NCBI GenBank assembly: GCA_963730185.1
Contig: CAVSQW010000009.1
Location: 355,175 to 419,174, forward strand
Direction of reading: 5' to 3'
DNA length: 64,000 nucleotides
From: an uncultured Gemmatimonadales bacterium
GTDB lineage: Bacteria > Gemmatimonadota > Gemmatimonadetes > Gemmatimonadales > GWC2-71-9
The translations under genes were made by a program, and so were the position numbers. Below the pieces are notes generated by a model that made no database searches, was not told the origin of the DNA, and was given only the letters and a program-made list of their open reading frames with translations. Positions 23,247 to 25,107 of this stretch are shown in pieces; position 1 is the first letter of the stretch; each line of letters begins with the position of its first letter.

Positions 23247-24538
23247 CGCCCGGGCGGCGGCGAAAGGGCCACCCCGCCCTTGATGACCCGCTCGATCCGC
23301 TCCGCGTTCCGGATGTCGGCCGTCGGGTCGGCGCCCAGCACCACCAGGTCGGCCAGCTTGCCGCGCTCGATCGTGCCGAGGCTCGCCTCCTGGCCGAGCG
23401 CTTTGGCGCCGTCGAGCGTCGCGGCGGTGATCGCCTGGGCGGGAGTGAAGCCGCAGTGGTCCACCAGGTACTCGAGCTCGGTGAAAAGCGGCGGCAGGCC
23501 GTCGGGCCGCATGGTCTCCGGCCCGTCGGTTCCGGCACTCACCGGGATCCCCAGGTCTCGGGCCTCGACCGTAACCCGGCAGGCCCAGTCGGCGGCCTCG
23601 GGCGAGATCCCCTGGACGACCGCCGAGACGGTGGCGTCCAGGACCGTGCCGCGCGCCTTCATCAGGTCGAGCACTCGCCGGACCGGCTCCCCGTCGGGCG
23701 CCACCCGGTCGAACGGACCGACCGGACCGAAGTTGGTGTACGGGTCGGTGTGGAACCGGGCCGGCAGGGTCGGCACGCCTTCCCACACCAGGAGCGCGGC
23801 GTGCGACACCGCGTCGACCCCCGCCTCCACGACGTCCGAGGGCCGGACCGGGAAGATGGCCGGGTGGGTCCAGACCCGGAGTCCCTGATCGTGAGCCGCC
23901 GTGGTGATCCGCTGCACCAGATCGAGCGAGAGATCGGAGTAGATCTTGATGGCGGAGACGCCGAGGGCCTTGGCGCCGGCCACGGCGGCGGTGAGGTCGG
24001 TGGAATCGGTGACCGCCAGGAACCACGGGACCTCACCCGGCGCCTGATCGCCGGTGGATCCGATCGGCCGCTTGTCCACCGCGTAGAAGCTCGGCCCGGC
24101 AAAGAAGGCGGAGTAATAAAGCCGGGCCATCGGGGTGCCGGGATCGCGCGAGCGGGGCGCGACCTGGGCGAAGAGGGCTGCGTCGCCCGCCATGTCCCGT
24201 ACGGCGGTCACCCCGCCGGCCGCCAGCTGCCCGAGCCGGGTGACCAGCTGGATCGAGTCGGGCGGAAAGTGCGAGTGGGTGTCGATCAGACCCGGCATGA
24301 CCCAGCGTCCGGCCAGGTCGAGCCGCTCCACGCCCGCCGGCGGCCTCTGGTCGCCGGTCGGGCGGACGGCCGCGATCCGGTCGCCTTGAATGGCCACCAC
24401 CTGATGCTCCCTCGGCGCGGCGCCGGTGCCGTCGACGACCGTGACGTCCCAGAGCAACAGGTCGGCCGCGGGCGCGGGCCGCTTGGCGCATCCGGCGGCA
24501 AGGGCCAGGCCGACCAGGAGCAGGGCGGAACGGATCAG
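23243..24538 (-). CDS. Secreted/lipoprotein amidohydrolase family protein
   Basis: [24 protein letters not shown] and [13 protein letters not shown] motifs, with lipobox LAAGC. The start is uncertain (CTG 24538 or ATG 24595). Confidence 0.85.
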
Positions 24539-25107
24539 GTCGGTTCCCGCCCCACGCCGAGGGCGTCGGCGACGCGGTTGATGTAGTTGAACCATGAGGC
24601 GATCAACGTGATCTGGAGGATGCCCCGGTCGTCGAAGCCCACCTGCCGGAGGCGTTGATGGTGCTCGGGTGTGATCTTGGTCGCATCGCGGGTGATCTGG
24701 TCGACGTAGTCCAGCATCACCCGGTCGGGCTCGTCGATCGGCGCGGTGCGATAGTCGGTCCGGATCGCGTCGACCAGCCCGTCGTCCAACGTCACCCGGC
24801 GCAGAAACTCTGCGTGGGAGTCGATTCAATAGAAGCACCGGTTGGCGACGGAGACGACGGTGGTGATCAACTCCTGCTGGCGCCGGGTCAGGGGCAGGTC
24901 CGGCGAGGTCAGCGCGCCGAAGGTGGAGAACGCATGGTGGAGGGCCTCGGGAATCAGGCTATGCGAGGCCACGATGCTGGAGGTCCCGTCGCCAGTGGGA
25001 TGAACCGGCTGCCGGTAGTCGGCGGGATAGAGGGCGGCCTGCCGCTCCACCGCGTCCTTGAGCCGCTGGTCCGCTGCCGAGAGCGGAACCGTTTCGATCC
25101 AGGTCAT
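24535..25107 (-). CDS. AhpD/CMD-like peroxidase-related protein, predicted selenoprotein (CxxU)
   Basis: ORFs 24826..25107 and 24535..24795 are in one frame, separated only by TGA: ...[20 protein letters not shown]...[14 protein letters not shown]. The family motif is N.CxYCxxSH. A SECIS-like hairpin follows. Confidence 0.85.
24795..24828 (-). promoter_or_regulatory. Putative bacterial SECIS element
   Basis: The mRNA reads UGA-AUCGACU-CCC-A-CGCAGA-GUU-UCUGCG-CC-GGG. The apical loop starts with GU 18 nt after the UGA. Confidence 0.7.

Follow-up and report, generated by a model that had tools for sequence, protein, structure and literature searches.

An AhpD-like protein with a predicted CxxU motif encoded across an in-frame TGA codon in an uncultured Gemmatimonadales bacterium

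A gene on the minus strand of a 64,000-nucleotide contig segment from an uncultured Gemmatimonadales bacterium (the whole stretch analysed here, hereafter the window) most probably is an intact gene for an AhpD-like protein (TIGR01926/COG2128) in which the TGA at codon 94 is read as selenocysteine (Sec). The product would be a predicted thiol/selenol oxidoreductase with a CxxU motif, and we assign this reading as a whole a probability of about 0.93. Considered separately, the recoding of codon 94 as Sec is very likely, and a predicted peroxide- or disulfide-reducing role, given Sec, is likely. Because the AhpD-like selenoprotein family has been catalogued since 2005, the call is correct but ordinary: the window gene is a new member of this family, and not a new system or mechanism.

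A single reading frame interrupted by one TGA

Positions 25107 to 24535 of the minus strand read as a single frame of 190 codons followed by a terminal TGA. The sole internal stop of this frame is the TGA at 24828-24826, which is codon 94 and lies three codons past Cys91 in the motif NRC-FY-U-IDSH (TGC TTC TAT TGA ATC GAC TCC CAC). The first-pass annotation of this DNA had proposed that two short ORFs form one 190-codon frame that is split by TGA exactly at the second cysteine of the motif, and re-reading the sequence confirms this. Its expectation that standard pipelines would split the gene also holds. Specifically, genetic code table 11 cuts the frame into ORFs at 24826-25107 (93 amino acids) and 24535-24795 (86 amino acids), and the two halves stand as separate entries in a public protein collection. 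The features of the locus, with the evidence for each, are as follows.

24535 to 25107, minus strand: gene for an AhpD-like / peroxidase-related (TIGR01926) protein of 190 amino acids, with one TGA predicted to be read through (profile score, model, fold match)
24826 to 24828, minus strand: in-frame TGA at codon 94, likely selenocysteine, the U of CxxU (TGA conservation; Cys in homologues)
24835 to 24837, minus strand: Cys91, the first residue of CxxU (of 120 homologues, 104 have Cys here and 16 have Thr)
24871 to 24873, minus strand: Glu79, predicted proton-relay glutamate at the position of PA0269 Glu36 and Mtb AhpD Glu118 (invariant in the alignment; spacing as described in PMC3141380)
24814 to 24816, minus strand: His98, predicted proton-relay histidine at the position of PA0269 His55 and Mtb AhpD His137 (His in 119 of 120 homologues)
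24799 to 24816, minus strand: frozen 18-nt segment, codons 98-103 (HAEFLR), which holds the predicted SECIS upper stem-loop (codon freezing, kept pairs, consensus fit)
25115 to 25122, minus strand: GGAGAGAG, a purine-rich stretch 7 nt upstream of the ATG that is probably the ribosome-binding site (function assigned from sequence)

Among the four stops in the window that have coding-like base composition on both sides, the one at codon 94 is the only TGA. Contigs from related strains that span the codon have no difference at 24826-24828 among the differences listed. The gene sits between an upstream beta-propeller gene and a downstream amidohydrolase gene, all on the same strand. This arrangement is not a conserved operon: of 94 orthologues, none has the upstream gene as a neighbour and 2 have the downstream gene.

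Elsewhere in the window, apparent frameshifts near 33.2 kb (about 33150-33300) and 34.05 kb (about 34050), in a class-III aminotransferase gene and an amidohydrolase gene, are probably assembly indels, and they fit the earlier remark that the other lesions in the window are indels. A large gene encoding TPR, FG-GAP and ASPIC/UnbV regions occupies about 13600-17033 of the plus strand, and a similar gene is found near the orthologue in several other loci.

The predicted protein and its active site

With its TGA taken as Sec and scored as Cys, the read-through protein passes the TIGR01926 profile (104.1 bits versus a cut-off of 81.8), and it also passes TIGR00778 and Pfam CMD. It scores below the cut-off of TIGR00777, the profile for AhpD proper (20 versus 191.95 bits), and below that of NF041238 (60.8 versus 175 bits). 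The latter profile describes the AhpD_rel_CFYUT (seleno)protein, which has a similar C-F-Y-U motif and a related domain. However, that model spans 357 positions compared with 190 amino acids here, and the window protein is not a member.

An AlphaFold model of the protein (pLDDT 92.5) matches DR1765 of Deinococcus radiodurans (PDB 6k40) with a TM of 0.83, and other peroxidase-related proteins with TM values of 0.76-0.82. DR1765 and the uncharacterised peroxidase-related proteins 2pfx, 2oyo, 2prr and 3c1l have the same all-helical fold (TM 0.76-0.83) and an N-x-C-x-Y-C...H motif, but they carry Cys where the window protein has its predicted Sec. Identity to these proteins is 22-30%, as it is to the closest characterised relatives. 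Glu79, Cys91, Tyr93, Sec94 and His98 are located on model helices 75-88 and 92-106, which form a helical hairpin. The spacing of these residues is identical to that of the PA0269 AhpD proton relay, formed by Glu36, Cys48, Tyr50, Cys51 and His55 (PMC3141380). The Mtb AhpD protein has the same five-residue relay with the same spacing, but its fold match is weak (TM 0.52), and no ahpC gene adjoins the window gene.

Among 120 full-length homologues from the database, 60 have Cys at column 94, 58 have Trp, and Ser and Leu occur once each. The proposed pairing of Cys with TGA at this column is thus seen in half of these proteins, and likewise in three solved structures with printed alignments, all of which have Cys there. 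Thr replaces Cys91 in 16 of the 120 homologues while Cys94 is kept (TxxC, a one-cysteine form), and for this reason position 94 looks indispensable. In Mtb AhpD the second cysteine is the attacking residue, which fits the retention of the second cysteine in these 16 proteins. One relative (G003) carries a paralogue-like copy, L032, with the disturbed motif CHSRLPHH where others have CxxU; this could reflect an error in the assembly or decay of the copy.

In the proposed mechanism, Sec94 would attack a peroxide or the disulfide of a partner, activated through His98 and Glu79. Cys91, as the resolving residue, would then form a selenenyl-sulfide with it, and the enzyme would be returned to its reduced state by a donor of lipoyl or thioredoxin type. 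AhpD is described as being reduced by lipoamide-containing proteins, and loss of DR1765, in which both cysteines matter, leads to higher sensitivity to H2O2 (PMC8945050). The peroxidase activity described for PA0269 is weak (PMC3141380). We infer the term 'peroxidase' for the window protein from its family and its active-site residues.

A different function could be envisaged even if Sec is inserted. The protein might reduce a selenium- or sulfur-containing amino-acid derivative imported by a neighbouring transporter, or it might carry out reductive dehalogenation like Bmp8. Indeed, about 27 of 80 orthologue loci, in Acidobacteriota as well as Gemmatimonadota records, have an APC-family amino-acid permease gene immediately upstream of the orthologue and in the same orientation (L097:2472-3857, with about 26 more among L045-L124). 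Moreover, the debrominase Bmp8 has the same fold (TM 0.72-0.75), and the first cysteine is missing from the TxxC homologues. However, the permease gene is not adjacent in the window, and the best match in this genome, at 36-38% identity, is located elsewhere. The best fold matches are of the DR1765 type, with its link to H2O2 sensitivity, and all five AhpD relay positions are kept. On balance we consider such non-peroxide chemistry unlikely, and favor a peroxide- or disulfide-reducing role for the Sec-containing protein.

One TGA at codon 94 across orthologues

A near full-length orthologue with 70-74% identity is present in 14 of 40 relatives, and all 14 carry TGA at column 94. The same codon stands at this column in every one of the 80 genome and 80 metagenome loci compared, which are the highest-ranked of 596 and 593 loci, respectively, by similarity to a Sec-type query; close relatives are not independent samples. 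TGA is present at codon 94 in 175 of 175 loci, the window included, and there are no other internal stops. The named records are mostly from Acidobacteriota and Gemmatimonadota, with single records from Planctomycetota and Candidatus Cybelea.

Because the first sets had been ranked by likeness to Sec-type queries, the search was repeated with a Cys-type query. This search returned one TGA in 20 of 20 places among 301 genomes of the same phylum, and in 44 of 45 places among 401 genomes of a second phylum. Fifty of the places were fetched, several of which repeat earlier loci; TGA is at column 94 in 49 of them and TGC in one.

These data bear on the notion that the TGA is a true stop, after which the 3′ half restarts and yields a second small protein that either assembles with the first or acts apart from it. 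Products of 93 and 86 amino acids are called at this locus, and many half-length entries exist in public sets. However, the 3′ half has no conserved start codon, with at most 67 of 175 loci having one at any codon from 95 to 111. A stop at codon 94 would also cut the active-site helix between Cys91 and His98. Furthermore, uninterrupted Cys orthologues exist at 65-73% identity, and carriers of the gene track selA, as described below. We therefore regard two separate proteins as very improbable.

Alternatively, the TGA might be decoded as Trp, either under code 4 or by low-level near-cognate read-through, to give a CxxW protein. The Trp found at column 94 in 58 of the 120 full-length homologues speaks for this possibility, but none of the 58 W-type proteins comes from a contig longer than 2138 bases. 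Nine of the 58, versus none of the 60 Cys-type proteins, also have W at the position of the natural stop, which is a signature of code-4 gene calling. TGG at codon 94 occurs in no locus examined, even when a W-type query is used, whereas the genuine tryptophans at residues 3 and 172 are encoded by TGG in 175 of 175 loci. In addition, TGA serves as the terminal stop in 63 of 160 loci. Given the short contigs, the W residues at natural stops and the absence of TGG, the W-type entries are probably Sec genes translated with code 4, and the Trp at column 94 is probably a false residue created by this mis-translation. For the same reasons we rejected CxxW as a real variant, and decoding of the window TGA as Trp appears extremely improbable. 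No W-type protein had an exact match among the fetched loci, and a literature search on code-4 mis-annotation of Sec yielded nothing on point.

Finally, the apparent frameshifts elsewhere in the window and an assembly that is 81.8% complete might suggest a pseudogene, or an error that turned TGC or TGT into TGA, but both gene halves are conserved and in frame at about 70% identity across orthologues, and the presence of the same TGA as the only internal stop in all 175 loci, from independent assemblies and records of several phyla, refutes this explanation and excludes sequencing error in practice, leaving it next to no probability.

A hairpin frozen within the coding sequence

The stem-loop CGCAGA-GTT-TCTGCG spans 24814-24800, and the G of its loop, at 24808, lies 17 nt downstream of the TGA. 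Five of its pairs have predicted probabilities of 0.99-1.0, and the closing A-U pair has 0.76. When codon usage is compared among 171 distinct orthologue genes, synonymous sites are frozen in only 6 of 106 conserved degenerate codons. These are codons 98-103, each represented by one codon in 97-100% of the genes. At the remaining 100 conserved degenerate codons, the top codon accounts for a median of 56.5% of the genes and for 90% at most. The codon for His98 also falls within the frozen segment, and is CAC in 175 of 175 loci. The HAEFLR codons are frozen, we propose, because the hairpin lies within the coding sequence.

The stem pairs are kept in 166-171 of the 171 orthologues, and the only pair-keeping change is A-U to G-U (5 of 171). 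Because the hairpin hardly varies, no two-sided compensatory change is seen, and the structure is thus supported by its invariance and its fit to the consensus and not by covariation. The bacterial SECIS consensus, as given in a 2026 review, comprises a loop of 3-9 nt, an upper stem of 4-16 bp, a G in loop position 1 or 2, a distance of 16-37 nt from the UGA, and an MFE of at most -7.5 kcal/mol (PMC13188914). The hairpin agrees with this consensus in its loop (GUU, or AGUUU), its stem (5-6 bp) and its spacing (17 nt, or 16). The 15-nt hairpin by itself has an energy of -6.5 kcal/mol, short of the limit, which is reached only with flanking bases (-7.6 kcal/mol over 17 nt, -11.4 over 24 nt).

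The stability of the hairpin does not serve as evidence, and its presence by itself says little. The 59 nt from the TGA give z = 0.00, with 93 of 200 shuffles folding equally well, and 14,992 of 58,984 TGA junctions (about 25%) in this genome of 70% GC pass a loose SECIS-like scan. It is conservation that lifts the hairpin above chance. The first-pass annotation had described a hairpin after the TGA consisting of this stem-loop and a CCC/GGG extension. The stem-loop is upheld by the frozen codons in 171 orthologues, whereas the extension folds in the window sequence (at about 0.85) but is not conserved, its middle pair being present in 57 of 171 orthologues versus 81 expected from shuffled columns. 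Two alternative registers for the lower stem are not conserved either. Covariation beyond that of shuffles is absent in eight of the nine column pairs tried, and the exception, 9/33, fits none of the tested stems.

Sec machinery and its co-occurrence with the gene

The organism had been supposed to make Sec, and a check of its genome for selA, selB, selC and selD located all four genes in an assembly that is 81.8% complete. The tRNA-Sec scores 69.1 bits versus a cut-off of 47, and ARAGORN reports the anticodon tca. SelA matches at 432.9 bits, and SelB is represented by an open frame with an N-terminal GTPase motif and a wing-3 match of 69.1 bits. SelD matches at 378.8 bits and has an in-frame TGA of its own (G000:C13:64417-65334, plus strand; L011). 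This TGA lies at the N-terminal active-site position, and SelD itself is therefore likely to be a selenoprotein. By the established route of Sec insertion in bacteria, the short hairpin, with its loop G 17 nt past the UGA, would be recognised by SelB in complex with Sec-tRNA(UCA), and Sec would thereby be delivered at codon 94.

All 14 relatives that carry a close orthologue have selA (13 over the cut-off and one partial), and the 4 of 41 genomes without a selA match have no close orthologue and have selB scores below the cut-off. Of 50 further carrier genomes, taken from 79 available, 46 have a match to selA and 43 exceed its cut-off. The other 4, assemblies of unstated completeness, yielded no match to selA at 1e-20, and none or only weak ones with Pfam. 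No p-value is attached to this co-occurrence because kin are not independent. In L225, the single orthologue found as DNA with TGC, the motif is TxxC and the hairpin has decayed; a search of its genome for selA and selB found neither. This locus is a natural control, with n = 1.

Other genes in the source genome are also interrupted by TGA. A second TIGR01926 member (G000:C15:645552-646013, minus strand; L257) scores 121.5 bits and has TGA at the same CxxU position. Its hairpin is different but has the same 17-nt spacing, and TGA-bearing relatives of this paralogue are present in other genomes of the family. Two peroxiredoxin-like genes, near 249199 on the minus strand of G000:C6 (L255) and near 387318 on the plus strand of G000:C8 (L256), have in-frame TGA codons in UxxC and TxxU motifs, together with SECIS-like hairpins. 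They score below NCBIfam cut-offs and are likely to be further selenoproteins. The TGA-containing SelD, Prx-like and AhpD-like genes seen here resemble the SelD/Prx/AhpD-like set described as common in the GOS survey (PMC2398784).

Relation to known selenoproteins and significance

AhpD-like selenoproteins with CxxU were reported in 2005 from a survey of the Sargasso Sea (27 sequences; PMC1088965), in 2006 from two complete genomes (PMC1794560), and in 2008 as 'AhpD-like 1' in the GOS survey (299 sequences; PMC2398784). They are also listed under TIGR01926 in Table 1 of the 2026 review (PMC13188914) and in BSepDB (PMC13326102). The earlier statement that such proteins had already been reported is thus matched in the published catalogue, where they stand among the predicted entries. 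The window gene shares with this 'AhpD-like protein' family (COG2128/TIGR01926) its pass of the TIGR01926 profile, a CxxU motif with one Sec, widespread Cys homologues, and a downstream SECIS that fits the consensus. Whereas the 2005 and 2008 studies surveyed marine metagenomes, the subfamily described above occurs mostly in records named Acidobacteriota and Gemmatimonadota and has an almost invariant SECIS. A literature search for AhpD selenoproteins in soil Acidobacteria found nothing; this lineage may already stand in BSepDB tables, in supplements or in subscription papers.

A broader and rather doubtful possibility is that this subfamily ranks among the most common selenoproteins of soil and sediment bacteria, with 18 near-identical SECIS bases across phyla, and that its close Cys forms (CxxC, then TxxC) arose by Sec-to-Cys reversion in lineages from which the Sec machinery had been lost. 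Such a subfamily may have stayed hidden because its gene is split in databases or its Sec is entered there as Trp. The Cys clade is nested among Sec sequences in unconstrained trees and keeps the HxEFLR peptide, which suggests reversion. However, an AU test on 40 rows, which left out 10 distant outgroups and 18 ingroup rows and had columns 91-103 removed, does not reject a single Sec clade (p-AU 0.81), and the tree with Sec sequences together is better by 25 log-likelihood units. Thus, reversion is suggested by the free trees without support from the AU test. If true, it would contrast with the 2026 review, which describes Sec-to-Cys change as rare in bacteria outside FdhA and SelD (PMC13188914).

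The finding has value for annotation, as the gene is split in public sets and 58 of 120 full-length close homologues carry what is probably a false Trp at the catalytic position. Moreover, the block of six frozen codons, kept across phyla, provides an unusually clean SECIS for work on SelB recognition in Gemmatimonadota and Acidobacteriota.
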